In this document: one piece after another, positions 3,668 through 26,831 of the stretch | How positions within the stretch are numbered: the stretch's first letter is position 1 | How the letters are laid out: each line of letters opens with the position of its first letter | From: an uncultured Bacteroidales bacterium | GTDB taxonomy: Bacteria; Bacteroidota; Bacteroidia; Bacteroidales; JAADJA01 | Reading direction: 5' to 3' | Length of the DNA: 64,000 nucleotides | Assembly: GCA_963761195.1 (NCBI GenBank) | Contig: CAVXGA010000012.1 | Location: 96,082 to 160,081 of the forward strand | Program-made: the position numbers and the translations under genes | The notes under the pieces: generated by a model | Database searches by the model: none | What the model was told of the DNA's origin: nothing | The model's input: the letters and a program-made list of their open reading frames with translations, nothing else

Positions 3668-3785
3668 GGTCATTCAGGCAAGGTCATTGAACCTTAAACC
3701 TTGAACTTTGAACCTTAACACCTTGAACCTTGAACTCTTGAACCTTAAACCTTTGAACCTTAAACTTTGAACCTTAAACTTCCAC
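3668..3785. repeat. Degenerate tandem array of TGAAC(C/T)T / TTGAACCTTAAAC units (about 9 copies)
   Basis: Read directly: ...ttgaaccttaaaccttgaactttgaaccttaacaccttgaaccttgaactcttgaaccttaaacctttgaaccttaaactttgaaccttaaac... It ends about 40 nt before the M48 start. Confidence 0.8.
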
Positions 3786-3795
3786 CTAATTTTGG

Positions 3796-3824: not shown

Positions 3825-5067
3825 ATGGCTCAGATCATATTTTATATAATTATTGGGATTATTATTTTCGACTATATTCTGGAACGGATACTCGATTGGC
3901 TCAACAGTACGTATTGGAGCAATGAACTACCTCCCGAACTTGCCGGCATTTACGATGCGGAGAAATACAAAAAATCGCAGGATTACGAACGAGTGACCAC
4001 CCGTTTTTCGTTGCTTACAAGTTCATTAAGCATTATCGTTATGCTGCTCATGCTTTTCCTTAGCGGTTTTGCATGGCTCGATAATGTTGTACAGGCATTA
4101 TACGCAAAATCCCATCCTGATGGCACTGCTGTTTTTCGGGATACTGGGATTTGCTGCCGATATCCTGTCGACGCCATTTTCAGTTTACAGCACCTTTGTC
4201 ATCGAAGAAAAGTTCGGATTTAATAAAACAACTCCGAAAACCTTTGTTCTGGATAAGCTGAAAGGGTTATTTCTGGCGGCGATTATCGGTGGCGGACTGC
4301 TGGCTCTTGTCGTATGGATTTACATGATTTCAGGCTCATGGTTTTGGGTGATCGCCTGGGCTGTCATCAGCGTGTTTACTATTTTCATGACCATGTTCTA
4401 TTCAAACATCATTGTTCCTTTATTCAACAAGCAAACACCGCTTGAAGAAGGAAACCTGCGAACAGCCATCGAAGATTTTGCACATAAAGTCGGCTTTAAG
4501 CTTAAGAATATTTTTGTCATGGACGGTTCCAAACGCTCCACGAAGGCAAATGCCTATTTTACAGGTCTCGGCTCAAAGAAACGAATCGTACTTTTTGATA
4601 CACTGATCAAGGATCATACAACAGAAGAGCTTGTCGGAGTTTTGGCCCATGAAATTGGCCATTACAAGAAAAAGCATACGCTTACGGGAACCATTATTTC
4701 GCTTTTACAAACCGGACTGATGCTTTATATTTTATCGCTCTTTATTGGGAACCCGGTTTTATCGCAGGCGCTGGGTGCAAGCGAAGGCAGTTTTCACTTG
4801 GGTATTCTTGCATTCGGATTGCTGTACAGTCCCCTGTCGCTCATTCTCGGATTAATTATGAATATGATCTCCCGGAAAAATGAATTTGCTGCGGATCGTT
4901 ATGCAGGCGAAAATTATAAACCCAAACCCTTACAGGATGCATTAAAAAAGTTATCGGTTAATCATTTAAGCAATCTTCGCCCCCACCCTGCCTATGTATT
5001 CTTTTACTATTCGCATCCGCCGCTGCTGCAAAGACTGAAAGCACTGGAAAAGGTAACTCCAGCTTGA
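3825..5067 (+). pseudogene. M48 family (Ste24/HtpX-like) zinc metalloprotease, interrupted by a +1 frameshift near 4092
   Basis: HEIGHYKKKH (HExxH) sits in the 3' frame. The N-terminal frame (MAQIIFYIIIG...GFAWLDNVV) continues as RHYTQNPILMALLFFG only if one base (c at about 4092) is skipped. Confidence 0.8.
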
Positions 5068-8873: not shown

Positions 8874-9212
8874 TTATAAATTAAGTAATTCTTGAACTTC
8901 AGTTTTAAGTTTTGGTAGGTGATTAATCAGGATGCTCCAAATAAGATCATCTGAGATTTTATCATAACCATGTGCTATCCTGTTTCTTGTCCCAACAATT
9001 TTTTGCGCATTAACAAGTTCAAATTTCCTGTCCCTTTTAAGTATTCGGTTTGTAGCTTCTCCAATAATTTCGATATTGCGCTCAACAGCACGCTTAGTTT
9101 TTATGTCCTTAATATAGTTTTCAAATATCCTTGGTTTATCGGCAAAATAACTCTCAATCTCTTCAATGGATTGAATAATATCATACAACCATGTCTTTAT
9201 TTCATTATCCAT
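8874..9212 (-). CDS. hepT: HepT-like (DUF86) RNase toxin of a type VII MNT/HepT toxin-antitoxin pair
   Basis: Rx4HxY motif within TRNRIAHGYD. Overlaps the upstream MNT gene by 8 nt. Confidence 0.85.
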   Translation of the reverse strand: MDNEIKTWLYDIIQSIEEIESYFADKPRIFENYIKDIKTKRAVERNIEIIGEATNRILKRDRKFELVNAQKIVGTRNRIAHGYDKISDDLIWSILINHLPKLKTEVQELLNL

Positions 9213-9504
9213 AAATAAGTTGTTTGGATTGATCTATGGATTGCCGTAAATATGGATTTTTTATTGCTTTATCTTCCAACAAATCCACATCTCTATTGAA
9301 TAATCGTTCCAATGACTCTTTGAAATCGAAATAATTATCAGCATAATAATATAAGTCGACATCATTAAAATCTACTACAAAATCAATATCACTGGTTTTT
9401 CTGAATCTGCCAGTTAATACCGATCCAAAAGCAAATAGTTTACTCACCTTGTGTTTCTTACACAAATCATTAATAATTTCAATATTTCTATCAACAATAT
9501 CCAT
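9205..9504 (-). CDS. mntA: MNT nucleotidyltransferase antitoxin
   Basis: FGSVLTGRFRKTSDIDFVVDF, which is a GS...DxD minimal nucleotidyltransferase motif. Confidence 0.85.
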   Translation of the reverse strand: MDIVDRNIEIINDLCKKHKVSKLFAFGSVLTGRFRKTSDIDFVVDFNDVDLYYYADNYFDFKESLERLFNRDVDLLEDKAIKNPYLRQSIDQSKQLIYG

Positions 9505-9764: not shown

Positions 9765-9834
9765 AAATGTGTGAATGATGTAACTCTTTTCTATAATTGT
9801 GTAATGCTTTCCGAAATAGATAGAATGACCTTTG
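9765..9834 (+). promoter_or_regulatory. Stress-gene upstream element, copy 1 (box A 9765-9784, box B 9795-9805, box C 9828-9834)
   Basis: AAATGTGTGAATGATGTAACTCTTTTCTATAATTGTGTAATGC, then 25 nt, then CTTTG. Starts 134 nt before the ATG at 9899. Confidence 0.7.
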
Positions 9835-10209: not shown

Positions 10210-10710
10210 ATGAGAAGATCAGTGTTGACCATATTGTTAGTTTTAATAATTAGCATGCTTTTTGCCCAAACTCCGTTGCCGAATGGTAAGGTCCAGCTTA
10301 ATGCCGGGGTAGGTTTATATTCAGGCGGAATTCCCGTTTATGTAGGTTTCGATGTAGGTGTTCCCAAAGATTTTACCGTCGGCGGAGAATTGTCTTTCGC
10401 ATCCTATTACGATGACTGGCATTCCAGACATTACCATCATACGGTTACAGGTATTTCCGGCAATTTTAATTATCATTTTAACAGGTTGCTCAACATCACT
10501 CCAAAATGGGATGTGTATGCCGGTCTGAACCTGGGATTTTACATCTGGAATTCGCCCAACGATTATGAAGGAAATCATAGTTCAGGTCTTGGTTTGGGCT
10601 TACAGGTTGGCGGAAGGTACTACTTTACGGATAAATTCGGGATTAATCTTGAATTTGGTGGTGGTAATGAATTTTCGGGAGCCAAATTCGGTATTTCAAT
10701 CCGATTCTAA
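10210..10710 (+). CDS. Small outer-membrane beta-barrel protein (OMP_b-brl / OmpW-like)
   Basis: Signal peptide, alternating aromatic/Gly beta-strand pattern, and a C-terminal ...KFGISIRF. Confidence 0.65.
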   Translation: MRRSVLTILLVLIISMLFAQTPLPNGKVQLNAGVGLYSGGIPVYVGFDVGVPKDFTVGGELSFASYYDDWHSRHYHHTVTGISGNFNYHFNRLLNITPKWDVYAGLNLGFYIWNSPNDYEGNHSSGLGLGLQVGGRYYFTDKFGINLEFGGGNEFSGAKFGISIRF

Positions 10711-11001
10711 AATGCTTGCGGGTTAGGATGCCTTGAAAAAGATGCATCTAATGATACGCATATTTATTACAGGTATGCAGGTAAAATTCCTGTTTACTGT
10801 AGCTTTATTGCAATAGATAAGGAAATAACCACCTTCAAAAAACCATCCCGATTCGTGAAGGCTTCCTTTTAATTAATCTGTTAATTATTTTACCACTCAT
10901 TGTTTGCTTGACAAAACTTCAGGGATATCGATTCCAGACAATTGATTGACACGTTACTTTTTATAGACTTCAGTGACTAACCAAAAACGCATCCCATTTG
11001 T

Positions 11002-11071
11002 AAATGTGTGAATCATGTAACTCTTTTGCATAATTGTGTAATGCTTTCCGGAAAAGATAGACGGAACTTTA
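11002..11071 (+). promoter_or_regulatory. Stress-gene upstream element, copy 2
   Basis: AAATGTGTGAATCATGTAACTCTTTTGCATAATTGTGTAATGC, then 25 nt, then CTTTA. Also starts 134 nt before its ATG (11136). Confidence 0.7.
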
Positions 11072-11135
11072 CTCGTGTAATCATTTTATTAAACCTGTTA
11101 AAAAGGAAGCAGGAAATTTAAATAAATTTTTAGTC

Positions 11136-11291
11136 ATGAGAACTATGCTAAATGTCATTGCAATAATTTTGGTTGTTGCCTGGGCAATCGGATTTTTTAA
11201 ATACAGCGCCGGGGGAATGATAAACATTCTTCTTGCACTAGCTCTTTTTGCAGTATTGCTAAGGGTGTTGATGGGACCAAGAAGCATTTAA
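11136..11291 (+). CDS. lmo0937-family small membrane protein (51 aa)
   Basis: MRTMLNVIAIILVVAWAIGFFKYSAGGMINILLALALFAVLLRVLMGPRSI, a paralog of 9899-10054. The listed minus ORF 11081-11287 is its antisense shadow. Confidence 0.75.
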   Translation: MRTMLNVIAIILVVAWAIGFFKYSAGGMINILLALALFAVLLRVLMGPRSI

Positions 11292-11413
11292 AAATGCCTC
11301 CTTAATTACATGATCATTTATGGCAAATGCTTCATAATCTGCGAATTTTATCAGACGACTCCATGACCCCATAATTAAAATTATACGGATGTTAAAAAAC
11401 TAATTAAAGCTAC

Positions 11414-12457
11414 ATGATAGAGGTCAAAAAGGAAGGTATATTACTCACTAAAACAAATTTAGAATTTGAAAACGAAGGGGTTCTGAATCCTGCAGTAATT
11501 CGCGAAGGAGATAGTGTTCATCTTTTTTACCGGGCTGTGCAACAAGGAAATCATTCGAGTATAGGCTATTGCCGACTGGATGGTCCGTTAACTGTCGCTG
11601 AACGATGGGATAAACCTTTTATGGTTCCCGAATTTGAATACGAATCGCAGGGCGTTGAAGATGCTCGTATTGTAAAGATTGACGACCTGTTTTATTTGAC
11701 TTATACCGGTTACGACGGAACAAATGCCCGCGGAGCTTTTGCTACTTCAAAAGATTTAAGCCATTTCACAAAACAAGGGCTCATTGTTCCTCCCATAACG
11801 TATGCACAATTTGTATTCCTTGCTGAAACTGCCGGAAAAGTAAACCCAAATTATTACCGTAATCATAAGTTTTACTACCAGAAAGCTGATCCTGAAAAAA
11901 AAATAATGTTGTGGGACAAAAATGTAGTTTTCTTTCCCCGAAAAATTAATGGGAAATTGGTATTCCTTCACCGGATCAGGCCCGGCATTCAGATTGTTTC
12001 TATAGATCAAATAAAAGAACTAACTATACAATTCTGGGAAAACTATTTTATCAACCTGCAGGAACATATTGTTATGGATCCTGTTCATGCGCACGAATCA
12101 AGCTACATCGGCAGCGGCTGCCCACCTGTTGAAACAGAACACGGATGGTTGCTGATTTATCATGGAGTAAAAAAAACCCGCCAGGGGATTGTTTATTCGG
12201 CCTGTGCTGCCTTACTGGATCTGAATGATCCTTCGAAAGAGTTGGCGCGGCTGCCTTATCCATTATTTTCGCCGGAATATGAATGGGAATTGCATGGTGA
12301 GGTGAATAACGTCGTATTTCCTACCGGTACTGTGCTTTTTGGAAATACCCTATTTATATATTACGGAGCAGCAGATACACATAGTGCCTGTGCTTCCGTT
12401 AGTTTATCAGCAATATTGGAAGAATTGTTAACTTATACGAACAGTGATGAAAAATAA
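11414..12457 (+). CDS. Glycoside hydrolase family 130 (DUF377-type) protein, putative beta-mannoside phosphorylase/transferase
   Basis: GVLNPAVIREGDSVHLFYRAV, GVEDARIVKIDDLFYLTYTGYDG and WLLIYHGV are GH130 five-bladed propeller signatures. Confidence 0.7.
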   Translation: MIEVKKEGILLTKTNLEFENEGVLNPAVIREGDSVHLFYRAVQQGNHSSIGYCRLDGPLTVAERWDKPFMVPEFEYESQGVEDARIVKIDDLFYLTYTGYDGTNARGAFATSKDLSHFTKQGLIVPPITYAQFVFLAETAGKVNPNYYRNHKFYYQKADPEKKIMLWDKNVVFFPRKINGKLVFLHRIRPGIQIVSIDQIKELTIQFWENYFINLQEHIVMDPVHAHESSYIGSGCPPVETEHGWLLIYHGVKKTRQGIVYSACAALLDLNDPSKELARLPYPLFSPEYEWELHGEVNNVVFPTGTVLFGNTLFIYYGAADTHSACASVSLSAILEELLTYTNSDEK

Positions 12458-14903
12458 AATAGTTTCTATCGGATTTAATAATGTGATCAATCATCAGAAA
12501 GAGTTGTCTCATTTGAAAAATACCATTCCTACGAGAATCACTCTTAAAAACATTGATATAGAACCGAATCCGGACAAAAAAACGGATTTGGCTGAAATCT
12601 TGTTTATTACCTCCTATCCACCAAGGGAGTGCGGTATAGCGACCTATTCACAGGATTTGATAAAATCCCTTAATAATAAATTCAGCAATTCCTTCTCTAT
12701 AAAAGTTTGTGCGCTGGAATCAGGAGATGCCAATTATCCATATCCTGAGGAAGTAAAATGTATTCTTAAAACATCCCTGGCTTCCGGATATGATAAACTG
12801 GCATTGACCATTAATAATGACAATCGCATCAAAATTGTTCTGATACAGCATGAGTTCGGCTTTTATAGATTGCAGGAACAAGCATTTATAAAGTTTTTAC
12901 ATAAACTTTCAAAACCGGTTGTTATTGTTTTTCATACCGTATTGCCACATCCTGATGAAGCATTAAAATCAAAGATACAAAGTATTGCGGCTGCCTGCGA
13001 GGCCATTGTTGTAATGACCCATATTTCGGAAGGGATTTTAACAAATGATTATGGATTGCCGGATCAAAAAATATCCGTGATAGCCCACGGTACTCATTTG
13101 GTCTCCCATTTAAGTAAGAAATTTTTAAAAAGTAAATATGGATTAAAAGGCAGGAAAGTCCTTTCAACATTTGGCCTGCTAAGTTCGGGAAAGAGTATTG
13201 AAACTACATTGGAAGCATTGCCGGCCATTATAAAAACCAGCCCCGAAGTCGTATTTCTGGTAATCGGCAAGACCCATCCCGAAGTTGTGAAGACAGAAGG
13301 AGAAAAATACAGGGAAATGCTTGAACAAAAAGTGAAACAATATGATCTTCAGGATCATGTGATATTTATTAATAAATATGTTGCATTACCTGAATTGCTC
13401 GAATATTTGCAGCTTACCGATATTTACCTGTTTACCACCAACGATCCGAACCAGGCCGTAAGCGGCACATTTGCCTATGCCATGAGCTGCGCCTGCCCAA
13501 TCATCTCCACCCCTATTCCTCATGCAAGGGAAATATTGACTGAGGATACCGGAATTATTTTTGATTTTCGCAACTCAGAACAATTGGCTAATGGCGTTAT
13601 ACGGTTACTCACCGATGATCCGTTGCGAAGGAATATCAGTACAAATACGCTGGAGAAAATCGTCTCCACTGCCTGGGAAAATTCTGCCGTTGCACATGCA
13701 ATGCTGTTCGAAAAAATTGCCGGAGAAAAAATTGTGCTGCAATATAATCTTCCGGCCATCAACCTGGACCACCTGAAACAAATGACTACGGATACCGGGA
13801 TCATTCAATTTTCAAAAATCAATCAACCCGATATCAGTAGCGGTTATACCTTAGATGATAATGCCAGAGCACTGGTAGCCATGTGCATGCACTTTAAACT
13901 GACTGGTGATGAGTCGAGTGTAGATTACATTGCAAAATATCTCGATTTTATAAAATATTGCCAGCAACCGGCAGGAAATTTTTTAAATTATGTAGATAAG
14001 GATAACAATTTTACCGAACAAAACAATGCTGTCAATTTGGATGATGCCAATGGAAGAGCTGTTTGGGCCCTGGGATATTTAGTGTCATTATCGAGCCTGC
14101 TGCCCGCGGAGATTATTTTTGAGGCTAATGAAATCATTCAAAAAACAATTCCTCACATAGAAACAATGCATTCAACACGGGCTATGGCCTTTGCTATAAA
14201 AGGATTGTATTTCTATCATACGAGCATAAAACTGCCTGAACAGTTTAACCTGATTAAAACACTGGCAAATCGTTTGGTTCAGATGTATAAACATGAATCG
14301 GATGAAAAATGGGAATGGTTTGAAACCTATCTCACCTATGCCAACAGTATATTGCCCGAATCCATGTTATATGCCTGGTTATTAACCGGAGATACTGTTT
14401 ACAAAGACATCGCCAGATCATCGTTTAATTTTCTTTTATCGCAAACCTTTAATGAAAACGGGATAGAAGTAATTTCGAATAAAGACTGGCTGCAAAAGGG
14501 AGAGAATGCAGGGGGTTTTGGCGAACAACCTATTGATGTTGCCTATACCATAATGACTTTAAGCGCTTTTTATGACGAATTTATGGATGATAGCTATCGC
14601 CTGAAAATGGAAACGGCCTTCAACTGGTTTTTAGGGAACAACCGATTGCATCAGATTATTTATAATCCTTGCACCGGGGGTTGCTACGACGGGCTGGAAG
14701 AAAAACATGTGAACATAAATCAGGGTGCAGAGTCAACGATAAGTCATCTGATAGCAAGATTTACAATTGAAAAGTATAAAATTTCACAGACCCGACTTAA
14801 AACTCAATTGCGAAATCATATCAGGGTGCATAAAAAAAACAGCGAATTTGTATATTCGACCGTTGATAAAAATGAACCGGGTGCTCATTTTTTCATTTCA
14901 TAA
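12447..14903 (+). CDS. GT4-family glycosyltransferase fused to a C-terminal domain of about 400 aa with unknown function
   Basis: The N-terminal roughly 420 aa look like GT-B/GT4 (FITSYPPRECGIATYSQDL, a GKTHPEVV-type region). The C-terminal half has no motif I recognise. The start overlaps the GH130 stop. Confidence 0.65.
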   Translation: MKNKIVSIGFNNVINHQKELSHLKNTIPTRITLKNIDIEPNPDKKTDLAEILFITSYPPRECGIATYSQDLIKSLNNKFSNSFSIKVCALESGDANYPYPEEVKCILKTSLASGYDKLALTINNDNRIKIVLIQHEFGFYRLQEQAFIKFLHKLSKPVVIVFHTVLPHPDEALKSKIQSIAAACEAIVVMTHISEGILTNDYGLPDQKISVIAHGTHLVSHLSKKFLKSKYGLKGRKVLSTFGLLSSGKSIETTLEALPAIIKTSPEVVFLVIGKTHPEVVKTEGEKYREMLEQKVKQYDLQDHVIFINKYVALPELLEYLQLTDIYLFTTNDPNQAVSGTFAYAMSCACPIISTPIPHAREILTEDTGIIFDFRNSEQLANGVIRLLTDDPLRRNISTNTLEKIVSTAWENSAVAHAMLFEKIAGEKIVLQYNLPAINLDHLKQMTTDTGIIQFSKINQPDISSGYTLDDNARALVAMCMHFKLTGDESSVDYIAKYLDFIKYCQQPAGNFLNYVDKDNNFTEQNNAVNLDDANGRAVWALGYLVSLSSLLPAEIIFEANEIIQKTIPHIETMHSTRAMAFAIKGLYFYHTSIKLPEQFNLIKTLANRLVQMYKHESDEKWEWFETYLTYANSILPESMLYAWLLTGDTVYKDIARSSFNFLLSQTFNENGIEVISNKDWLQKGENAGGFGEQPIDVAYTIMTLSAFYDEFMDDSYRLKMETAFNWFLGNNRLHQIIYNPCTGGCYDGLEEKHVNINQGAESTISHLIARFTIEKYKISQTRLKTQLRNHIRVHKKNSEFVYSTVDKNEPGAHFFIS

Positions 14904-14926
14904 CAATGCCGCAGGTATCATACACA

Positions 14927-14963
14927 TTTTTCAGCATAAAATTGTAAAATATTGGCTGAAAAA
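14927..14963 (+). terminator. Inverted repeat TTTTTCAGC-N19-GCTGAAAAA, 3' of the GT4 gene
   Basis: A perfect 9-bp stem with A/T flanks, but the long loop weakens the call. Confidence 0.3.
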
Positions 14964-15397
14964 TATATAAAAATATTTTCACAACAGTAGTTATCGGAAT
15001 AACCTGCTATCAGGATACCCTGATTAACAAAAACCTATGGAATCAAGCAATACTCCCAATTCATAATTGCAACACTAACCATGGATCCAAAATAGATATG
15101 GTTGCTTCGCATAGCTGTTAAGTTTCGGTATAAAAGAATTGAGTAATTCCAAAAAAAGTTTATCATAGGCCGAATATAACCAAAATAAAGATAAATTTGG
15201 ATTTTTTTTATTGGTAATTCTGATTGCTTAATTCTATTGAAAAAGTATACGATATCAAGATTTTGTTTGAGGCTGATATTAGAATATTAGAGATGATTAT
15301 CTACTAATTAAGCATTTATGTGTGTGGTACAGATATTGCACAATAGAATAAGCACATTTCACCTTATATAAAAATTGAAGGTCTAATTTGATTTACA

Positions 15398-16870
15398 ATG
15401 CAAGTTAAAGTAACTAGAAAAGACGTATTATTTAAACCGGATCCAACCCGGGTAATAGCCCGATATATAAGTTATTCTGAAAGTAATAATATTCGCATTA
15501 TCTTAAATGTCCTTTCCATGTCGGAGCTGGATGTAGATATTGCTGTTAATCAGGTATTAAGAGGATATTCAAAAAGACATAGAAGAATTTCAAATATATT
15601 TGAAAAACACTTTATAAAGCTGAAGAATGATTTAGCATCAAAGAATATTATTCCAGATGCACTGAATCAGAACCGGAGGCTGTTGATAGGCTCCTATTTT
15701 ACGATGGAGTATTCCATTGAATCAGCTGCATTTTTTAATCCTTCGATAGTGGAGCATCCTGATCAGACTGAATTACAACATGGTGAAAAAAGGATAATTA
15801 TGAGCTTCAGGGCTACCGGTGAAGGTCATATATCTTCGATTGTTTTCCGTTCTGGTGTGCTGGATATGAATAATGTAATGAGTTTTGAGCCCCGTGGGAG
15901 AATGCTGGATGAACCTGAAACCATCAGGCATTATTTGTATGATAAAAAATCCTTTCAGGAAAAGTTGGAAAATATGAAATTTTATGACAACACCTTACCT
16001 CCTTCAGTAATCCTGGACCAGCTCGAAGATGAATTCACTTATCTCGAATTGCAAAAATGTGTGGAAGAGGCCAATAATACTTTTCCATTCTCAGAAATAA
16101 AAACCCTGACGCTAAAACAGATCATGTGGCTTGCTTCATCACATTATGAAATTGAATTTTCCTTTGATACTTCCATGTCAGAACGGGTTATTTTTCCGGT
16201 TATGCAAACTGAAAAAAATGGTATTGAAGACGCCCGTTTTGTCCGTTTTGTTGATGATGACGGAACCATAAAGTATTTTGCAACATATACAGCATATGAC
16301 GGATCCGTAATTATGCCCAAGCTGATCGAAACAAATTCTTTTTACAGGTTCCAGATTTCTCCGATTAATGGTGACTTTGCTATGAACAAAGGAATGGCAG
16401 TTTTCCCCAGGAAAATCAATGGGAAATATGCTATGCTGGGCCGTATTGATGATGCCTCCATCTACATTTCATTTTCGGATGATTATAAAGTCTGGAATGA
16501 AGCACAACTTATTCAGGAACCAAAGTACCCATGGGAATTTGTTAAAATAGGCAATTGTGGTTCACCGATTGAAACTGATGAGGGTTGGCTGATTATTACC
16601 CATGGGGTCGGACAAATGAGGGAATATGTTCTGGGTGCCAGCTTGTTCGATTTAGATAATCCAACCAAAGAAATCGGTAGATTAAAAACTCCAATGATGA
16701 TTCCCAACATGGAAGAGCGAGAGGGTTATGTCCCCAATGTACTCTATTCCTGTGGTTCTATTATAAATAACGGAGAACTTGTGATTCCTTATGCCATGTC
16801 AGATTATGCTTCTACATATGCTACTGTTAATTTAAAGGAACTTCTGGGTGAGTTGAAGAATTCCAAATAG
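15398..16870 (+). CDS. Long-form GH130 family protein (490 aa, about 150-aa N-terminal extension)
   Basis: GIEDARFVRFVDDDGTIKYFATYTAYDG, VFPRKINGKYAML and WLIITHGV. Confidence 0.7.
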   Translation: MQVKVTRKDVLFKPDPTRVIARYISYSESNNIRIILNVLSMSELDVDIAVNQVLRGYSKRHRRISNIFEKHFIKLKNDLASKNIIPDALNQNRRLLIGSYFTMEYSIESAAFFNPSIVEHPDQTELQHGEKRIIMSFRATGEGHISSIVFRSGVLDMNNVMSFEPRGRMLDEPETIRHYLYDKKSFQEKLENMKFYDNTLPPSVILDQLEDEFTYLELQKCVEEANNTFPFSEIKTLTLKQIMWLASSHYEIEFSFDTSMSERVIFPVMQTEKNGIEDARFVRFVDDDGTIKYFATYTAYDGSVIMPKLIETNSFYRFQISPINGDFAMNKGMAVFPRKINGKYAMLGRIDDASIYISFSDDYKVWNEAQLIQEPKYPWEFVKIGNCGSPIETDEGWLIITHGVGQMREYVLGASLFDLDNPTKEIGRLKTPMMIPNMEEREGYVPNVLYSCGSIINNGELVIPYAMSDYASTYATVNLKELLGELKNSK

Positions 16871-16964: not shown

Positions 16965-17034
16965 AAAGGTGTGAATTATGTAATTTTAATATAAAATTGT
17001 GTAACACATATTTTGCTATAGTTATTCAACTTTG
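16965..17034 (+). promoter_or_regulatory. Stress-gene upstream element, copy 3
   Basis: AAAGGTGTGAATTATGTAATTTTAATATAAAATTGTGTAACAC, then 25 nt, then CTTTG. Starts 99 nt before the ATG at 17064. Confidence 0.65.
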
Positions 17035-17063: not shown

Positions 17064-17840
17064 ATGAAAAAAACATTTCAATTCCTTGCATTCTTAACCT
17101 TGATTTTTAGCATGTTAATTATATCATGCGTACCAACCAGAAAACTTGAGGTTTCAAAAGCCAAAGTTGATAAGCTACAAAAAGACAGCACGAAAACGCA
17201 CAATCAACTGAATGAGTGCAATTCGCAAAAAGCATCCCTGCAGGATGAATACGCTGCTGTTCAAAATGATTTGAAGGTTCTTTCAACCGAATCAAATCTG
17301 ACCATTGCCGACCAGGCGAAACGATTGAAAAATCTTCAGGATATGATTCAGTCACAAAAGGATGTAATGACTAAACTTAAAAATTCAATAGCCGATGCGC
17401 TTATGAATTATAAAACCGATGAGCTATCCGTTTATACTAAAGACGGAAAGGTTTATGTTTCGCTTCAGGAAAAATTGCTTTTCAAATCAGGCAGCGATGT
17501 GGTTAATCCTCAGGGTAAAGAAGCACTTAAAACGCTTGCTCAGGTGCTCAACAGCACCAAAGACATTAATGTGTTGATTGAAGGCCATACGGATAATGTC
17601 CCTATTAAAACAAAATTGTTTAAAGATAATTGGGATCTCAGCACCGCAAGAGCCACATCCATTGTACGAATTTTGACAAAAGACAATGGCTTTGATTCGA
17701 GTCGTATAACAGCAGCAGGCAGAGGTGAATTTCATCCCGTATTAACAAATGAAACAGAGGAAGGACGTGCCGGCAACCGCCGAACTGAAATCATTCTATC
17801 ACCTAACTTGAGCGAGCTCTATAAACTATTGGGTCAATAA
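17064..17840 (+). CDS. OmpA-family lipoprotein with an N-terminal coiled coil
   Basis: Lipobox LIISC. The OmpA C-terminal domain shows TDNVPI...NRRTEIILSP. Confidence 0.8.
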   Translation: MKKTFQFLAFLTLIFSMLIISCVPTRKLEVSKAKVDKLQKDSTKTHNQLNECNSQKASLQDEYAAVQNDLKVLSTESNLTIADQAKRLKNLQDMIQSQKDVMTKLKNSIADALMNYKTDELSVYTKDGKVYVSLQEKLLFKSGSDVVNPQGKEALKTLAQVLNSTKDINVLIEGHTDNVPIKTKLFKDNWDLSTARATSIVRILTKDNGFDSSRITAAGRGEFHPVLTNETEEGRAGNRRTEIILSPNLSELYKLLGQ

Positions 17841-18081: not shown

Positions 18082-18150
18082 AAATGTGTGAATTATGTAA
18101 TTCTTATCCTGAATTGTGTAATACTTTCTGCAGTCATTTGAATTACTTTT
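18082..18150 (+). promoter_or_regulatory. Stress-gene upstream element, copy 4
   Basis: AAATGTGTGAATTATGTAATTCTTATCCTGAATTGTGTAATAC, then 24 nt, then CTTTT. Starts 116 nt before the ATG at 18198. Confidence 0.65.
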
Positions 18151-18668: not shown

Positions 18669-19535
18669 ATGAATTATTTGTATTTATTAATTCCACTTGC
18701 AGTTATTTTAATTGCAGGTATAAGAATTGTCAGACCCACACAAAGAGGGTTGATCGAAAGGCTTGGAAAATACCATAATTACGCGAATCCTGGATTTCAC
18801 TGGATTATTCCAATTATCGACAGGTTATTTATGGTAAATATAACCGAACAAATGGTAGATGCCGAGCCTCAGGAAATAATTACCAACGACAATTTGAATG
18901 CGAGCGTTGACGCGCAGGTATATTTCAGGGTGAAAGCCGATGAAGAAAACGTAAAAGGATCGACCTATAATGTGAATGATTACAAATGGCAGATTGTGAA
19001 CCTTGCACGGACGACGCTGCGTAATATTATCGGTACCCTTACGCTTAAATCGGCCAACAGCGAACGCGGTAAAATAAATGCCGGACTTTATGAAACTCTG
19101 CATAATGAAACGCAAAACTGGGGCATTGAAATCGTCCGCACAGAGTTGAAGGAAATTGACCCGCCTAAAGATGTGCAGGAAACCATGAATAAAGTAGTAA
19201 AAGCTGAAAATGAAAAAATTGCGGCTATAGATTCTGCGACTGCGGCCGAAACTGTCGCCGATGGGATAAAACGCGCCTCTATTAAAGAAGCGGAAGGGTT
19301 TAAACAATCGAAGATATTGCACGCCGAAGGGGAAGCTGAGGCCATTAGACTGGTAAATCAGGCAGCAGACAAATATTTTATCGGAAACGCTCAATTATTG
19401 CGGAAGTTGGAGGCAATGGAAACATCGCTCGAAAAGAATGCGAAAATTGTTATCCCAACCGGAACTGAATTGGTAAACATTATCGGAGAGATGGCAGGAA
19501 TAGTCCCTCTGACACGAAAACAAAAAGAAGATTAA
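18669..19535 (+). CDS. SPFH/band-7 (stomatin-like) membrane protein
   Basis: N-terminal TM segment followed by IRIVRPTQRGLIERLGKY...ITNDNLNASVDAQVYFRV. Confidence 0.85.
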   Translation: MNYLYLLIPLAVILIAGIRIVRPTQRGLIERLGKYHNYANPGFHWIIPIIDRLFMVNITEQMVDAEPQEIITNDNLNASVDAQVYFRVKADEENVKGSTYNVNDYKWQIVNLARTTLRNIIGTLTLKSANSERGKINAGLYETLHNETQNWGIEIVRTELKEIDPPKDVQETMNKVVKAENEKIAAIDSATAAETVADGIKRASIKEAEGFKQSKILHAEGEAEAIRLVNQAADKYFIGNAQLLRKLEAMETSLEKNAKIVIPTGTELVNIIGEMAGIVPLTRKQKED

Positions 19536-19667: not shown

Positions 19668-19736
19668 AAATGTGGGAATAATGTAAATCTTTTACAAAAT
19701 TGTGTAACGGATTCTGAAGGCAATTTACGTACTTTT
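19668..19736 (+). promoter_or_regulatory. Stress-gene upstream element, copy 5
   Basis: AAATGTGGGAATAATGTAAATCTTTTACAAAATTGTGTAACGG, then 24 nt, then CTTTT. Starts 236 nt before the ATG at 19904. Confidence 0.6.
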
Positions 19737-19903
19737 AATTTTTATTTTAAAAAATGGTGCTGAAGGAGTAACATATAGAAATAAAAATCCTGGGAAAATC
19801 ATAGACTTTGTCAGATAAACAGTAGTAATTGGTGGTATCGTTTTTTTCAGATTTAAACGTATTTATTTTGCTTCATTTTTATTCACACATAAAACCAACT
19901 GAA

Positions 19904-20104
19904 ATGAATGAAATCTTGACCCCCAAACAATGGAATGAACTCCGAATCCAATTAAAACAAAAACACCCTGAACTTACTGATGCTGATTTGCCTTATTATG
20001 AAGCCGAAGAAGAGGATATGTTGTGCATGATCGAATACGAGCTTCAAATGTATCATGAAAAAATGCCGCATACAAATAATGCTATTAGCCATTATTCCCG
20101 CTAA
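19904..20104 (+). CDS. CsbD-like stress protein, second paralog
   Basis: MNEILTPKQWNELRIQLKQKHPELTDADLPYYEAEEEDMLCMIEYELQ. The listed ORF start at 19829 is probably too early. Confidence 0.55.
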   Translation: MNEILTPKQWNELRIQLKQKHPELTDADLPYYEAEEEDMLCMIEYELQMYHEKMPHTNNAISHYSR

Positions 20105-20620: not shown

Positions 20621-20693
20621 TGATCCCGGGAGGGCTCGAACCCCCATCACGAGAACCGGAATCTCGAATTCTATCCAGTTGAACTACGGGACC
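20621..20693 (-). tRNA. tRNA-Arg (anticodon CCG)
   Basis: The reverse complement GGTCCCGTAGTTCAACTGGATAGAATTCGAGATTCCGGTTCTCGTGATGGGGGTTCGAGCCCTCCCGGGATCA folds as a cloverleaf. The anticodon loop is TTCCGGT. Confidence 0.9.
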
Positions 20694-20958: not shown

Positions 20959-22038
20959 ATGTCTGAAAAAATTTTAAACGTCGTTAAACCAGGTGTCATT
21001 ACTGGCGACGACCTACAAAAAGTATATAAAATTGCCAAGACGAATCAGTTTGCAATCCCTGCAGTCAATGTCATAGGAACAGATTCAGTAAATGGCGTTC
21101 TCGAAGTTGCCAGAACCGTGAATTCACCGGTAATCATTCAGTTCTCAAATGGCGGATCCCACTTTTATGCAGGAAAAGGTTTGTCGAATGAAAATGAAAA
21201 AGCAGCAATTATAGGGGCAATTTCGGGTGCAAAACACATTCATCATGTGGCTGAAATGTATGGAGTACCTGTAATTGTCCATACTGATCATGCAGCCAAA
21301 AAACTATTACCCTGGATTGACGGACTGCTTACAGCCGGGGAAGAACATTTTAAACATTACGGTAAACCGTTGTTCAGTTCTCACATGCTTGATTTGTCTG
21401 AAGAACCGATCAAAGAAAATATCGAAATCTGTAAGAAATATCTTGCAAGAATGAGTAAATTGGGTATGACGCTGGAGTTGGAACTGGGGGTTACCGGTGG
21501 CGAAGAAGACGGCGTGGACAATACAGGCCTTGACAGTTCGCGTTTATATACCCAACCCGAGGAAGTAGCCTTAGCTTATGAAGAACTGCTTAAAATTTCG
21601 CCTAACTTTACTATTGCAGCTGCATTTGGTAATGTGCACGGCGTTTACAAACCCGGAAACGTAAAACTTCAACCCATTATCCTGAAAAACTCACAAGATT
21701 ATATCCAGAAAAAATTTAACACGCCCGAAAAACCAGTAAATTTTGTATTTCATGGCGGTTCAGGATCAAGTCATGAGGAGATCAAACAAGCGGTATCGTA
21801 CGGTGTGATAAAAATGAACATCGATACCGATACGCAATGGGCATTTTGGGATGGAATACGGAAATTTGAGGCTAAAAACCACAGTTATCTTCAGAGCCAG
21901 ATCGGCAATCCTGAAGGTGATGATAAACCGAATAAAAAATATTACGATCCCAGAAAATGGCTCCGTGAAGGTCAGTTGAGCATGATCGAAAGATTGAAAA
22001 TTGCATTCGAGGATCTCAACAACATCAACAGGAATTAA
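20959..22038 (+). CDS. fbaA: Class II fructose-bisphosphate aldolase
   Basis: IPAVNVIGTDSVNGVLEVA, VIVHTDHAAKKLLPWIDG and FVFHGGSGS. Confidence 0.92.
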   Translation: MSEKILNVVKPGVITGDDLQKVYKIAKTNQFAIPAVNVIGTDSVNGVLEVARTVNSPVIIQFSNGGSHFYAGKGLSNENEKAAIIGAISGAKHIHHVAEMYGVPVIVHTDHAAKKLLPWIDGLLTAGEEHFKHYGKPLFSSHMLDLSEEPIKENIEICKKYLARMSKLGMTLELELGVTGGEEDGVDNTGLDSSRLYTQPEEVALAYEELLKISPNFTIAAAFGNVHGVYKPGNVKLQPIILKNSQDYIQKKFNTPEKPVNFVFHGGSGSSHEEIKQAVSYGVIKMNIDTDTQWAFWDGIRKFEAKNHSYLQSQIGNPEGDDKPNKKYYDPRKWLREGQLSMIERLKIAFEDLNNINRN

Positions 22039-23972: not shown

Positions 23973-26831
23973 ATGAAACGTATTTTACTTTTATCTGTCA
24001 TTCTGCTGACAGTATTTTTTGGAACTGTTCAAGCTCAGAACCTTGTCGTGAATGGAAACCTGGAATCGTGGACAAGCGGGGTCCCTGATGGGTGGGGACT
24101 GGTACAAAATATCACACAGGGAACCACATTTGTTCATGGTGGAAATTATTCCGCGATGCATACCTCTACCAGCACAAGTCAGAAATTTAACCAGGAGATT
24201 AACGGTTTGCAGGCGGGCCAGGATTATACAATAAGTTATTGGTATTACGATAATGACCCTACAGCAAAAACAAGGATATGGGCGTACTGGTTATCCGGTG
24301 GGGCAACTTTGCCTGACAATGCGGATGTGCTAAGACCCTCTACCTATTCGACTGACAATCCGGATTGGCAGCAATTTAGTGCAATACTGACCGCACCTGC
24401 AGGTGCCGATGCATTTCGTTTTGAAGTAAGGGTGTATCAGGAAAACAGTGTGTCAGGGGGTGCTAATTATTACGACGATTTTGAATTTACAGGTGATATC
24501 ATTGTAAATCCGGAACCTTCGAATTACCCAACCAACTTTGTCGCAAATGCTGCCGGTCTGTCTATCGACCTTTCCTGGACTGATGCTACAGGATCACAAC
24601 TTCCCACCGGTTACATAATAGTGGCCGGACTTAACCCATCATTACCGGTTCCGGTAGATGGAACACCAATTTTAGATGATCTGGATTTGTCAGATGGCAG
24701 TGGAGCGATCAACGTTGCCTATGGTGCTCAATCTACATCGTTTGTAAATTTAGAATCAAATACACCTTATTATTTTGCAATTTATCCATACAGTAACACG
24801 GGTACCAATATCGATTTTAAAACTGATGGTACGGCTCCGACTGCCACGGCAACAACAGCCAACCAAACAATTATCGAGTCAGAAAACTTTGACGATTCGT
24901 GGGGAAACTGGACTACAATCAGTGTAGTTGGCGACCAGGTTTGGGACAGAAACAATACTTTTGGACTCAACGGTACAGCTTGTGCACGTATCAGCGGATT
25001 TGTTGTCCAGGCTTTTGACAATGACGATTGGCTGATCTCGCCTGCAATGAATTTTAATAATTTTTCAAATGCATCCCTTGTATTTTTCAATGCGAAAAAT
25101 TATACAGGACCGGATTTGGAATGCGTGATATCGACTAATTATGATGGTGGTGGCGATCCTGGTTCTGCAACCTGGACAGCACTGACATATACAATGTGCC
25201 CCGGAAACTGGGTTTGGACGAATTCAGGTACAATTGACCTTTCTGCCTACAGCGGAGCCGCCGTGTATGTTGCTTTTCATTACACATGCAACACAGTTGA
25301 ATCAGCGACATGGGAAATCGATGATGTTCTGATCACCGGTGAAGGCACCGGGACTGTTTATCCCGAGCCTTCAAACTATCCTACAATTTTCACAGCCGAC
25401 CCGGGAAGCACGAGTATTCAATTATCATGGACTGATGCAACAGGTACACAACTTCCGTCAAAATATATCATCATGGCCGGAACTTCCGCTTCATTACCTG
25501 TACCGGTTGATGGAATTCCAACTCCTAATGACCTTGATCTTTCTGATGGTTCAGGTGCAATGAATGTTAATTATGGCGTTGAGGATGCTACTTTTGCTAA
25601 TCTGGTCACCGGAACAACCTATTATTTTACCATTTATCCCTATACGAATAGTGGTGCTGTCATTGATTATAAAACCGATGGTGTCGCTCCTGCAGCTAAT
25701 GCAACCACAACATTTTTACCCGAACCTACAAATTACCCGGTAAACTTTGTTGCCAGTCCAACAAACAACTCGATTGGATTAACCTGGACTGATGCAGTTG
25801 GAACTCAATTACCTGAAAAGTACATCGTCTTTGCAGGAACAAGTTCCACATTGCCTGTTCCTGTTGATGGAACTGCAATTGCAGATGATACGGACATGAG
25901 TGACGGATCCGGAGCACTTAATATTGCCTATGGTGTTCAAGCCGCTTCTTTCAGTGGATTAGAAGCAAGTACACCATATTATTTTTCAATATATCCTTAC
26001 ACCAATTCAGGTTCCGGTATAAATTATAAAACTGATGGAACGGCTCCCACTGTAACAGCTACAACCTCAGTCCAGACAATTGTTACTATTGAAGCAGAGA
26101 ATTTTGATGATAGCTGGGGCAACTGGACAACAGTTAGCGTGACAGGCGATCAGGTATGGAGCAGAGACAATACCTTCGGAATAAATAGTACACCTTGTGC
26201 ACTGATGAGCGGATTTTCGGGCGTATCCTATGAAAACGATGACTGGTTAATTTCACCTGCTTTAGACCTGGATAATTATAATAACGAGGTCCTTACTTTC
26301 CAGAATGCTAAAAATTACACAGGTAATGATCTCTTACTTAAATTTTCAACCGATTACAATGGTGGTGGAGATCCTTATTCGGCGACCTGGACTACATTGA
26401 ACTATACCATGTGCCCGGGAAACTGGACCTGGACTTCTTCAGGAAATGTTGACCTTTCATCAATTAACGGAACCGCTGTTTATGTTGCATTTCAGTTCAC
26501 ATCAACCAGTACGGAATCAGCTACCTGGGAGATTGATGATATTCAAATTACAGGTGAAGGAAACACAAGCATTACCAATCAGTTCTTATTATCGAATTTG
26601 TCAAAAGTTTATCCCAATCCTTCAAGTGGTGTTATCAATCTTGAAAAATTATATGAAGGATTTGATAAGGTTCAAATATTATCTTTAACCGGAACCGTAC
26701 TTTCTGAATTCGAATTTAATGAACCCATTGTCAGGCATGATATTTCTGACCTTGGCAAAGGAATTTATTTTGTCAGGTTTATAGAATCTTCAACAGGTCA
26801 GTATTCGGCACAAAAACTTATTGTCTATTAA
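23973..26831 (+). CDS. Large T9SS-secreted surface protein: CBM-like N-terminus, 3 FN3-like repeats, 2 choice-of-anchor-J domains, T9SS C-terminal sorting domain
   Basis: The repeat EPSNYPTNF...LSWTDATGxQLP...YYFxIYPY starts at about 24510, 25362 and 25719. ENFDDSWGNWTT...DDWLISPA...ATWEIDD occurs at about 24882-25340 and 26097-26560. The CTD VYPNPSSGVINL...GIYFVRF runs about 26607-26828. Confidence 0.8.
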   Translation: MKRILLLSVILLTVFFGTVQAQNLVVNGNLESWTSGVPDGWGLVQNITQGTTFVHGGNYSAMHTSTSTSQKFNQEINGLQAGQDYTISYWYYDNDPTAKTRIWAYWLSGGATLPDNADVLRPSTYSTDNPDWQQFSAILTAPAGADAFRFEVRVYQENSVSGGANYYDDFEFTGDIIVNPEPSNYPTNFVANAAGLSIDLSWTDATGSQLPTGYIIVAGLNPSLPVPVDGTPILDDLDLSDGSGAINVAYGAQSTSFVNLESNTPYYFAIYPYSNTGTNIDFKTDGTAPTATATTANQTIIESENFDDSWGNWTTISVVGDQVWDRNNTFGLNGTACARISGFVVQAFDNDDWLISPAMNFNNFSNASLVFFNAKNYTGPDLECVISTNYDGGGDPGSATWTALTYTMCPGNWVWTNSGTIDLSAYSGAAVYVAFHYTCNTVESATWEIDDVLITGEGTGTVYPEPSNYPTIFTADPGSTSIQLSWTDATGTQLPSKYIIMAGTSASLPVPVDGIPTPNDLDLSDGSGAMNVNYGVEDATFANLVTGTTYYFTIYPYTNSGAVIDYKTDGVAPAANATTTFLPEPTNYPVNFVASPTNNSIGLTWTDAVGTQLPEKYIVFAGTSSTLPVPVDGTAIADDTDMSDGSGALNIAYGVQAASFSGLEASTPYYFSIYPYTNSGSGINYKTDGTAPTVTATTSVQTIVTIEAENFDDSWGNWTTVSVTGDQVWSRDNTFGINSTPCALMSGFSGVSYENDDWLISPALDLDNYNNEVLTFQNAKNYTGNDLLLKFSTDYNGGGDPYSATWTTLNYTMCPGNWTWTSSGNVDLSSINGTAVYVAFQFTSTSTESATWEIDDIQITGEGNTSITNQFLLSNLSKVYPNPSSGVINLEKLYEGFDKVQILSLTGTVLSEFEFNEPIVRHDISDLGKGIYFVRFIESSTGQYSAQKLIVY

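Follow-up and report, generated by a model that had tools for sequence, protein, structure and literature searches.

A GH130 and GT4/six-hairpin carbohydrate module among stress genes of an uncultured Bacteroidales bacterium

Why should a set of enzymes predicted to act on mannosides sit among general-stress genes, with no import machinery beside it? This question is raised by positions 11414-16870 of a 64,000-nucleotide stretch of contig CAVXGA010000012.1 (positions 96,082 to 160,081 of assembly GCA_963761195.1, from an uncultured Bacteroidales bacterium), which is referred to here as the window. Two proteins of glycoside hydrolase family GH130, here called GH130-A and GH130-B, flank a glycosyltransferase of family GT4 that carries a C-terminal six-hairpin (6H) domain (GT4-6H). 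An earlier note, made from the letters of the sequence, had suggested a synthesis and phosphorolysis pair for a beta-mannoside reserve or solute under stress-linked control. We find that the three genes represent one version of a cytoplasmic carbohydrate module that is widespread. A stress-linked intracellular cycle of mannoside synthesis and phosphorolysis, for which we infer the substrates, flux direction, product and regulation, is our leading but still tentative explanation, plausible though open to real doubt. The layout of two GH130 genes around an 819-residue GT4 gene was recovered exactly as the earlier note had described it between 11414 and 16870, as three co-directional open reading frames (ORFs) with matches to Pfam:

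11414-12457, forward strand: GH130-A, 347 amino acids; Pfam Glyco_hydro_130 (PF04041), E=3e-51, 174.6 bits against a cut-off of 26
12447-14903, forward strand: GT4-6H fusion; start at GTG 12444 or ATG 12447, giving 819 or 818 amino acids
about 12597-13709, forward strand: GT4-like domain of GT4-6H, amino acids 52-422
about 13755-14768, forward strand: 6H, the (alpha/alpha)6 six-hairpin domain of GT4-6H, amino acids 438-775
14904-15397, no strand: non-coding gap of 494-495 nucleotides before GH130-B
15398-16870, forward strand: GH130-B, 490 amino acids; Glyco_hydro_130 over amino acids 260-484 only, E=3e-28, 99.1 bits

The GH130-A stop and the GT4-6H start overlap by 11-14 nucleotides (AGTGATGAAAAATAA). 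Each of the three proteins has hundreds of close homologues: GH130-A shares over 80% identity with more than 120 protein clusters, and GT4-6H is strongly conserved, with identity above 72% in the best 120 clusters. Neither a signal peptide nor a transmembrane segment was found in GH130-A, GT4-6H or GH130-B (maximum Kyte-Doolittle 19-residue mean 1.2-1.6). The earlier remark that transporter, SusC/D pair and secretion signal are all missing was borne out, as a scan of the flanking genes, up to 28.5 kb, showed no transporter or SusC/D gene, and no importer, SusC/D, GH5 or polysaccharide-utilisation locus (PUL) gene lies near the module in the window.

The GH130 and GT4/six-hairpin proteins

By both sequence and fold, the solved relatives nearest to the two GH130s are Teth514_1789 (7FIP), Teth514_1788 (9FJ8), Lin0857 (5B0P) and Uhgb_MS (9ERG), all four of them structurally known beta-1,2-mannoside phosphorylases. 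GH130-A matched Teth514_1789 with E=9e-47 and Teth514_1788 with E=3e-45. The structural model of GH130-B (predicted local distance difference test score, pLDDT, 79) has a Teth514-like propeller, for which Teth514_1788/1789 were the best fold matches (template-modelling (TM) score 0.74 on target), together with an N-terminal helical region of about 100 amino acids and a helical insertion of about 70-90 amino acids at about residues 180-250. In GH130-A, a variable loop of about 40 amino acids is inserted ahead of the WDKN motif.

Rules for reading GH130 active sites, in the numbering of UhgbMP, were set out by Li et al.: the proton donor is D104, the phosphate pair R168/H231 together with the lack of a signal peptide indicates a phosphorylase, and the residues at Y103/R150 report on linkage, E/K for beta-1,2, E/R for beta-1,3 and Y/R for beta-1,4 (PMC7660257). 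In this numbering R59, E103, D104, K150, R168, H231 and D304 are present in both window proteins and conserved within each clade. The E/K pair was found in GH130-A and GH130-B alike in an alignment to Teth514, TM1225 and RaMP2, the rule being a predictor of beta-1,2 linkage. When aligned to the solved enzymes, the motifs are LFYRA, VEDAR, WDKN, LHR, IYHGV and YGAADT in GH130-A, and SFRATG, IEDAR, MNKG, LGR, ITHGV and AMSDY in GH130-B, where R138, E277-D278-A279-R280, N330-K331, R349, H402 and D469 are invariant in the orthologue set. Because the catalytic Asp, the phosphate Arg/His and the E/K pair are all kept and no signal peptide is present, both proteins are predicted to be cytoplasmic beta-1,2-mannoside phosphorylases. 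The match to a beta-1,2-mannosidase model was much weaker (1e-29 for GH130-A and 1.6e-4 for GH130-B, versus 1e-58 and 1e-41).

The earlier note had drawn attention to EDAR in both proteins at the place of a more familiar EDPR. The motif is there, as GVEDARIV in GH130-A and GIEDARFV in GH130-B, but it does not set them apart: the characterised enzyme Lin0857 has EDAR too, and GH130-A orthologues are mixed (47 EDPR against 12 EDAR), with EDAR in all GH130-B orthologues. EDAR was therefore rejected as a subfamily hallmark. A rough neighbour-joining tree, built from about 150 shared C-terminal residues with no bootstrap and with PDB sequences rebuilt from alignment printouts, placed A and B as two separate clades beside, not inside, the GH130_6/GH130_4 representatives, with the beta-1,4 enzymes apart. 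The window proteins share the fold, the catalytic Asp, the phosphate site and the E/K pair with the GH130_4/GH130_6 enzymes Lin0857, Uhgb_MS and Teth514_1788/1789, but fall outside those groups in this rough tree and below the cut-offs of the NCBIfam equivalogs (scores given further below). We also noted that NCBI calls several GH130-A orthologues 'pesticidal protein Cry7Aa' (P0324, P0325, P0327, P0332 and P0348), which appears to be a propagated misannotation of the GH130 family.

A likeness to the Leishmania enzymes that build and degrade mannogen had also been proposed. At the level of enzyme family this could not be upheld, since the window proteins belong to GH130 and not to GT108. No GT108 chain was present among the PDB sequence hits at E<=1e-3 for either GH130, and the Leishmania hypothetical protein 2B4W, which we take to be a member of the MTP family of that organism, was a fold-level hit only, at rank 38 with the GH130-B model.

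The N-terminal half of GT4-6H matches the Pfam models Glycos_transf_1 (PF00534; E=1e-19, 70.7 bits against a cut-off of 26.4, amino acids 227-402) and PF13692 (63.7 bits), which jointly cover about amino acids 130-420, and a profile search with this half matched SPS, MshA and PimA/B. It belongs to GT4 but lacks the canonical Leloir motifs EX7E and GR..K. In the alignment, Q337-x7-Y345 takes the place of EX7E in 78/78 orthologues, and the GR..K phosphate motif has Leu where Arg would stand (F-G-L-L...K250), with K250 kept, again in 78/78. The Q-x7-Y variant is also found in the split GT4s of the Thermoanaerobacter type and of loci L088 and L089. In other lineages, a co-occurring GT4 of 339 amino acids retains EX7E.

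For the C-terminal part of GT4-6H, about 390 residues, no Pfam or NCBIfam family was found. Its model is an (alpha/alpha)6 barrel (pLDDT 74, predicted TM score (pTM) 0.79), and its sole solved sequence relative is Yersinia pestis YPO2471 (PDB 7TEM; E=6e-11 with a single sequence, 2e-23 with a profile), with which it has the motifs DD.ARA and NQGAES in common. 7TEM also came first in the fold search (E=3e-10, TM 0.66), followed by epimerases and isomerases of the AGE superfamily (TM 0.55-0.63, 9-14% identity), GH9 and GH76. YPO2471 differs from the window domain in standing alone; it is annotated as a 'putative exported protein', and no paper on it was found in the searched literature. The 6H family comprises 3185 clusters at 50% identity (E<=1e-3), in which the domain occurs either fused to GT4 (730-800 amino acids) or alone (about 350-380 amino acids).

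AGE epimerases and isomerases need a conserved catalytic His pair. No invariant His was present in 6H across 21 or 78 sequences, and an AGE-type epimerase, which would have echoed the epimerase plus GH130 mannan pathway, was rejected for this lack of a conserved catalytic His. Invariant residues of the domain are D472, W625, W728, N733 and D749, and E627 and E763 are nearly so; the acidic set D472/E627/D749/E763 would be compatible with a glycosidase-like or transglycosylase-like site.

Conservation of the module across genomes

Homologous loci were collected by a genome scan, with one genome per species, at least 600 matches and the best 80 examined, and by a metagenome scan seeded with stand-alone 6H proteins, which gave at least 600 further matches. 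The best 80 genome matches were mostly from Bacteroidota, with Ignavibacteria, one metagenome-assembled genome (MAG) of Syntrophobacterales and archaeal MAGs making up the rest. A GH130-A-type gene lies directly upstream of GT4-6H on the same strand in 56 of the 73 loci with enough upstream sequence, and in two MAGs (L015 and L017) GH130-A, GT4 and 6H form a single in-frame ORF of 1094-1096 amino acids. GH130-B adjoins GT4-6H in place of GH130-A in Draconibacterium orientale (L001) and in L031, L040, L042, L046, L083 and L084, and also stands beside GT4-6H in many metagenome loci. In the closest relative of the window (L082), GH130-B is the surviving partner, the interior of GH130-A being replaced by a cassette of a repeat element and an lmo0937 gene (described below).

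Further versions were found in metagenomes: GT4-6H with a GH130 of about 310 amino acids, a canonical GT4 of 339 amino acids with EX7E intact and a GH130 of about 490 amino acids; GT4 and 6H with a CBS protein and a roughly 300-residue GH130; and GT4-6H convergent with GH130-B. The extra 339-residue GT4 is present in twelve metagenome loci (L116, L118, L121, L125, L129, L136, L140, L142, L151, L160, L161 and L169), and a CBS-domain protein is sometimes added (L094, L097, L101, L111 and L139). These extra genes, absent here, may supply steps that are encoded elsewhere in this genome. The trio of A and B around GT4-6H is rare, being confined to the window and L146, although a pair of a small and a long GH130 is common. 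What held of the cluster proposed earlier is therefore its core: GH130 plus GT4-6H is the constant part of the module, and this arrangement is conserved across phyla, far beyond chance.

One locus ties the module to characterised enzymes. The two GH130s of L131 share 95.7% and 97.2% identity with Teth514_1789 and Teth514_1788. Genes for ABC permeases lie upstream of this pair, as does a 627-residue gene without an NCBIfam match, at the published position of a GH5; downstream follow, in order, a 358-residue protein (best NCBIfam match mannose-1-phosphate guanylyltransferase), a 391-residue GT4 and a 349-residue protein without a family. The published cluster is Teth514_1785-1796 of Thermoanaerobacter sp. 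X-514, in which the corresponding genes run from Teth514_1789 to Teth514_1785 (Chiku et al. 2014, PMC4264767). Since the GH130s are 96-97% identical and the gene order matches that report, L131 is probably orthologous to this cluster (PMC4264767). Amino acids 52-422 of the window GT4-6H align to the L131 GT4, which also carries Q-x7-Y, with 34% identity (E=1e-70), and amino acids 438-775 to the 349-residue protein with 36% identity (E=4e-72). On these alignments, GT4-6H appears as a fused homologue of Teth514_1786 and the 'hypothetical' Teth514_1785. Teth514_1788/1789 have been characterised as phosphorylases of beta-1,2-mannobiose and of beta-1,2-oligomannan, with Teth514_1785/1786 left uncharacterised (PMC4264767).

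Like the window, the Thermoanaerobacter cluster has two GH130s beside a GT4 and a 6H protein. However, GT4 and 6H are separate genes there and fused in the window, and neither the window nor the Bacteroidota loci have counterparts of its ABC importer, GH5 and guanylyltransferase close to the module. The window GH130s belong to other clades (34-35% identity by full BLASTP, 38-44% over the C-terminal catalytic region), and differ from the Thermoanaerobacter proteins by the loop of ~40 amino acids in GH130-A and by the N-terminal extension and insertion in GH130-B. The surroundings differ too, the window module being placed in a general-stress island. In an ethanol-adapted Thermoanaerobacter strain, Teth514_1785-1787 were among 16 loci up-regulated in 6% ethanol (PMC3751872); the functional reading of this operon by the authors of that study is speculative (PMC3751872). 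A second split GT4/6H pair, in L088, comes after genes for a phosphoglucomutase/phosphomannomutase (PGM/PMM), a phosphorylase of family GH94 and an NTP-transferase. An inverting beta-glycoside phosphorylase and the activation of sugar-1-phosphates are thus recurrent companions of the GT4/6H unit.

A repeat element and the stress context

The window contains a 69-nucleotide repeat five times, each time between 9.7 and 19.7 kb. A search with its core pattern gave 5 matches, where 0.00 were expected from shuffles. The invariant core is GAATnATGTAA-N11-AATTGTGTAA (first half also AAATGTGTGAATnATGTAA), where AATTGTGTAA is a TTG-type -33 box, and about 25 nucleotides past the core lies a Bacteroidetes -7-like motif, GAACTTTA, of the form TAnnTTTG. 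The copies and the features around the first gene of interest are as follows:

9765-9833, forward strand: element copy 1, upstream of the gene for an outer-membrane beta-barrel protein (10210-10710)
11002-11070, forward strand: element copy 2, upstream of the lmo0937 gene
11136-11291, forward strand: lmo0937-family (DUF5670) membrane protein gene, 51 amino acids; NCBIfam NF033488, E=5e-11, above cut-off
11292-11413, forward strand: spacer from lmo0937 to GH130-A, without a terminator-like site; 11339-11413 is the 3' remnant of an AI-2E gene
16965-17033, forward strand: element copy 3, directly downstream of GH130-B and 31 nucleotides upstream of an OmpA-family lipoprotein gene (17064-17840)
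18082-18150, forward strand: element copy 4, before genes for a 54-residue membrane protein, a 61-residue CsbD-like protein and a Band_7/SPFH protein (18669-19535)
19668-19736, forward strand: element copy 5, upstream of a small gene that is the second CsbD-like one (within 19829-20104)

Every copy precedes a stress-type gene, and together they form a ~10-kb 'general stress island', in which copy 3 marks the end of the module. The exact core is also found in Draconibacterium orientale (L001) and in the related MAG loci L004, L007, L033 and L053. The five-copy element may serve as operator and promoter for a stress regulon of Bacteroidales that has not been described before.

The 51-residue lmo0937 gene is the first gene after element copy 2, and no terminator-like site lies between 11291 and 11414; a generic scan for sigma-70 promoters and terminators was uninformative, as its counts were the same as in shuffles. 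The earlier statement that an lmo0937-like gene behind copy 2 runs without a terminator into GH130-A is in keeping with the NF033488 match and with the empty interval, and element copy 2 is likely to be the promoter of an lmo0937/GH130-A/GT4-6H transcription unit.

GH130-B is a different matter. The gap before it contains no copy of the stress element and no Rfam match, nor did its 494 nucleotides show a plasmid match or a significant coding remnant of GH130, GT4 or neighbouring genes. Its 3' 200 nucleotides (15197-15397) are 89% conserved with L082, and a Bacteroidetes -7-like sequence, TAAATTTG, lies at 15192-15199; the gap is probably GH130-B's own promoter and leader. In many genomes GH130-B lies on the strand opposite GT4-6H. 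Because the gap lacks the element, its proximal 200 nucleotides are conserved and the gene is found on the opposite strand elsewhere, GH130-B is probably transcribed alone, which weakens the idea that copy 2 drives the whole trio. Two relatives, L001 (9268-9756, reverse strand) and L082 (12526-12684, reverse strand), carry a piece of the GH130-B C-terminus in inverted orientation just upstream of GH130-B; none was detectable in the window gap.

Comparison with L082 also bears on how the island was assembled. Window positions 11339-11506 align to L082 9244-9414, that is, to the end of AI-2E and the start of GH130-A, so that the lmo0937 cassette was evidently brought beside GH130-A through a deletion. 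The unit of element and lmo0937-like small gene (window 10851-11295) is duplicated and at other positions in L082 (6025-6288, 9406-9846 and 14696-14974). It replaces the middle of GH130-A in L082, and the genes from YtxH to AI-2E in the window. It looks as though the island was reshuffled by recombination between copies of the element.

We clustered the neighbour families of 81 loci, and list here the recurrent ones with the number of loci in which each was found:

187-residue AraC-like regulator, 19 loci
histidine-kinase-like protein of about 595 amino acids, 17 loci
YtxH, 13 loci
P-type ATPase, 13 loci
AI-2E transporter, 12 loci
Phage_holin_3_6-like, 11 loci
CsbD, 9 loci
DUF892/YciE-like, 7 loci
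Hsp20, 6 loci
BON, 6 loci
Usp, 5 loci

Genes for lmo0937/DUF5670 and OmpA-like proteins also recur among these loci. In L053, L004 and L007 a co-directional array runs from the element through lmo0937, YtxH, small proteins and AI-2E to GH130-A and GT4-6H, an order taken to be the ancestral one, and in L007 the AI-2E gene overlaps GH130-A. A stand-alone 6H gene was found inside an operon of YtxH, holin-like, DUF4142, 6H and DUF5670 genes, without GT4 or GH130. The AraC-type regulator, which has a small N-terminal domain, lies at the island edge (L004 112-672, L007 157-717, L001 4189-4728 and 16 further loci), and in L004 and L007 its gene ends exactly where a copy of the element lies, making it a candidate regulator of the element. 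The AraC-like regulator, YtxH, AI-2E and the canonical 339-residue GT4, which accompany the module elsewhere, are absent from the window. A stress-linked role of the module is supported by these associations. Stress-linked control as first proposed was thereby strengthened by the link to stress genes in many genomes and narrowed at GH130-B, which is probably not under element copy 2.

Other features of the window were recorded in passing. An Rfam scan of 9-21 kb returned one tRNA and two sub-threshold hits, the gaps being without a known RNA element. The tRNA gene (RF00005, 52.7 bits; 20621-20693, reverse strand) lies at the downstream edge of the island, and beyond it a 359-residue gene (20959-22038) has, by eye, the look of a class II fructose-bisphosphate aldolase. 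A toxin-antitoxin pair of a HepT-like RNase and a nucleotidyltransferase (MNT) lies directly upstream of the island (8874-9504, reverse strand). Farther out are TTGAACCTTAAACC-like short tandem repeats with a period of about 14-15 nucleotides (3687-3794), just upstream of an M48 peptidase gene (4069-5067), and a gene with internal DNA repeats (24574-26081) for a 952-residue fn3-containing protein (23973-26831, forward strand) that ends in a C-terminal sorting domain for type IX secretion.

A possible mannoside cycle and its rivals

How might these parts work together? Under general stress, the promoter at element copy 2 would transcribe lmo0937, GH130-A and GT4-6H as one unit. With a nucleotide sugar as donor, in all likelihood GDP-mannose, GT4-6H would synthesise an intracellular glycoside or prime its synthesis. 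The GH130s would add and remove beta-1,2-linked mannose by way of alpha-mannose-1-phosphate and phosphate, and possibly use GDP-mannose too, as other beta-1,2 GH130 phosphorylases are able to do (PMC12814180). The resulting mannoside pool, an oligomannan or a mannosylated small solute, would be built under stress and later recovered as mannose-1-phosphate without ATP cost. GH130-B would act as a separately controlled partner, perhaps with another chain-length preference, in the manner of the Teth514_1788/1789 pair.

Several observations weigh against such a cycle. On the NCBIfam beta-1,2-mannobiose phosphorylase model NF052550, GH130-A and GH130-B score 198.9 and 143.1 bits against a cut-off of 450, and on a second equivalog, NF050092, 164 and 139 bits against 550. 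By these scores the two proteins are relatives, not members, of both equivalogs, so their substrates may differ. GT4 enzymes are retaining, and GT4-6H therefore cannot itself form the beta-linkages that GH130 cleaves; its non-canonical donor site makes even the identity of the donor uncertain. No gene for a mannose-1-phosphate guanylyltransferase or phosphomannomutase is present in the locus. Among relatives, GH130-A is internally deleted in L082, the closest of them, and in several loci of Sphingobacterium and Chitinophaga no GH130 lies within 8 kb of GT4-6H. The 'stress island' rests on gene content and on one transcriptome in a distant phylum. Finally, the Thermoanaerobacter cluster, the one homologous cluster to have been studied by experiment, comes with an ABC importer and a GH5, and its authors infer salvage of imported beta-1,2-oligomannan (PMC4264767). 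Parts of the original proposal have to be restated accordingly. For the synthesis/phosphorolysis pair, the conserved module and the phosphorylase signature speak in its favour, but a retaining GT4 cannot be the beta-mannan synthase, which would leave any beta-1,2 synthesis to the GH130s. For a cytoplasmic cycle rather than foraging, the proteins are cytoplasmic and have no import machinery beside them, but the importer and GH5 in Thermoanaerobacter mean that the family is not purely one of internal cycles.

Salvage is the alternative suggested most directly by that cluster. External beta-1,2-mannosides, for example from fungal or bacterial glycans, would be split by the GH130s to mannose-1-phosphate, which gene products encoded elsewhere in the genome would convert to GDP-mannose, with GT4-6H alpha-mannosylating a cellular acceptor; the module would be catabolic and not a storage system. 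The single direction of ABC importer genes, GH5, two GH130s, guanylyltransferase, GT4 and 6H in Thermoanaerobacter fits this scheme, and L088 follows the same logic with GH94, NTP-transferase and PGM/PMM. In the window and the Bacteroidota loci, however, importer, SusC/D, GH5 and guanylyltransferase are all missing beside the module, the neighbours are stress proteins and not PUL genes, and the proposers of salvage named no natural source of substrate for Thermoanaerobacter. We regard salvage as unlikely here, though with a real share of the probability. The neighbours can also be read as pointing to the cell envelope, since among them are proteins of the OmpA family, an outer-membrane beta-barrel, BON and Mla-type ABC proteins, and small membrane proteins; homologues of the glycosyltransferase are labelled 'glycosyltransferase involved in cell wall biosynthesis' at source, and the 6H homologue YPO2471 is annotated as exported. 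GT4-6H would then build or edit a glycolipid, lipoglycan or glycoprotein at the cytoplasmic face during envelope stress, and the GH130s would trim it or recycle its mannose. Yet no flippase, polyprenyl-phosphate transferase, polymerase or other glycan-assembly gene recurs beside the module, none of the three proteins has a membrane segment, the cell-wall label is generic for GT4, and phosphorylases require cytoplasmic phosphate (PMC7660257). Such envelope or glycoconjugate remodelling we consider rather improbable.

The altered donor site of the GT4-like domain allows a further scheme, in which it would use the alpha-mannose-1-phosphate released by GH130, as GT4 trehalose phosphorylases do with their sugar phosphate, and make an alpha-glycoside with no nucleotide cost. 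GT4 includes retaining phosphorylases, and it is listed among the phosphorylase-containing families (PMC7660257). The loss of both EX7E glutamates, the invariance of Q337/Y345 in 78/78 orthologues and in the split GT4s, the Leu in place of the GR..K Arg and the tight coupling, even fusion, to an enzyme producing mannose-1-phosphate would all suit a relay of two phosphorylases. Against it, a sugar-1-phosphate nucleotidyltransferase lies directly upstream of this GT4 in L131 and L088, which argues for a nucleotide sugar, and the motifs were read from a sequence alignment; we give this relay a small chance. That the three genes are neighbours by accident, with unrelated roles, is hardly credible: GH130-B is 495 nucleotides away and the combination of A and B is rare, but several phyla have kept the pairing, all three parts are naturally fused in some genomes, and the start and stop codons overlap.

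The proposed intracellular mannoside cycle can be set beside three known systems. By homology, the closest is Teth514_1785-1789; by function, the mannogen system of Leishmania; and by architecture, the cyclic beta-1,2-glucan synthase Cgs. The GT108 MTPs of Leishmania are five-bladed propellers that build and phosphorolyse a beta-1,2-mannan, an intracellular stress and reserve carbohydrate, as the cycle proposed here would do; chemistry of both the transferase and the phosphorylase kind has by now been demonstrated for beta-1,2 GH130s as well. That system differs in its enzyme family and has no GT4 or six-hairpin partner. Cgs combines a GT84 glycosyltransferase, an (alpha/alpha)6 cyclisation domain and a GH94 phosphorylase, and makes an osmoprotective glucan. 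The likeness, offered as an analogy only, lies in the combination, within one protein or operon, of an inverting beta-1,2 phosphorylase with a glycosyltransferase and an (alpha/alpha)6 domain; all three parts are fused in L015 and L017, and L088 pairs GT4/6H with a GH94. All three families and the domain order differ, and the sugar of the window module is probably mannose. In the searched literature we found no account of a form like this one, fused, without an importer and placed in a stress island, in which a Q-x7-Y GT4 is joined by two new GH130 clades, nor did searches there for mannosylglucosylglycerate with GH130, 'PH1107-related' or 'pesticidal protein Cry7Aa' return anything.

Bacterial beta-1,2-mannoside phosphorylases have been characterised in vitro, without an established physiological substrate. 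Here, enzymes predicted to be of this type are hard-wired, up to gene fusion, to a conserved and unstudied GT4/six-hairpin protein, and in Bacteroidota the module stands among general-stress genes and not in polysaccharide-utilisation loci, which suggests an undiscovered stress carbohydrate or solute. The association also gives a functional handle on the 7TEM family, on a GT4 class without EX7E and on a candidate Bacteroidales general-stress promoter element. Even if the module served only salvage or envelope maintenance, it would allow a useful re-annotation of proteins now called 'pesticidal protein Cry7Aa' or 'cell-wall glycosyltransferase'. In its boldest form, which we think doubtful, the proposal is of a hitherto unrecognised stress-carbohydrate system of Bacteroidota, many other bacteria and some archaea, in which three activities, GT4-like, six-hairpin and GH130, at times united in one polypeptide, make an intracellular beta-1,2-mannoside, linear or cyclic, and recycle it by phosphorolysis. 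If true, this would give prokaryotes a system matching the mannogen of Leishmania, as well as a counterpart to cyclic beta-1,2-glucan synthase that works with mannose, and would provide the first function for the YPO2471-type six-hairpin family and for the Q-x7-Y class of GT4.

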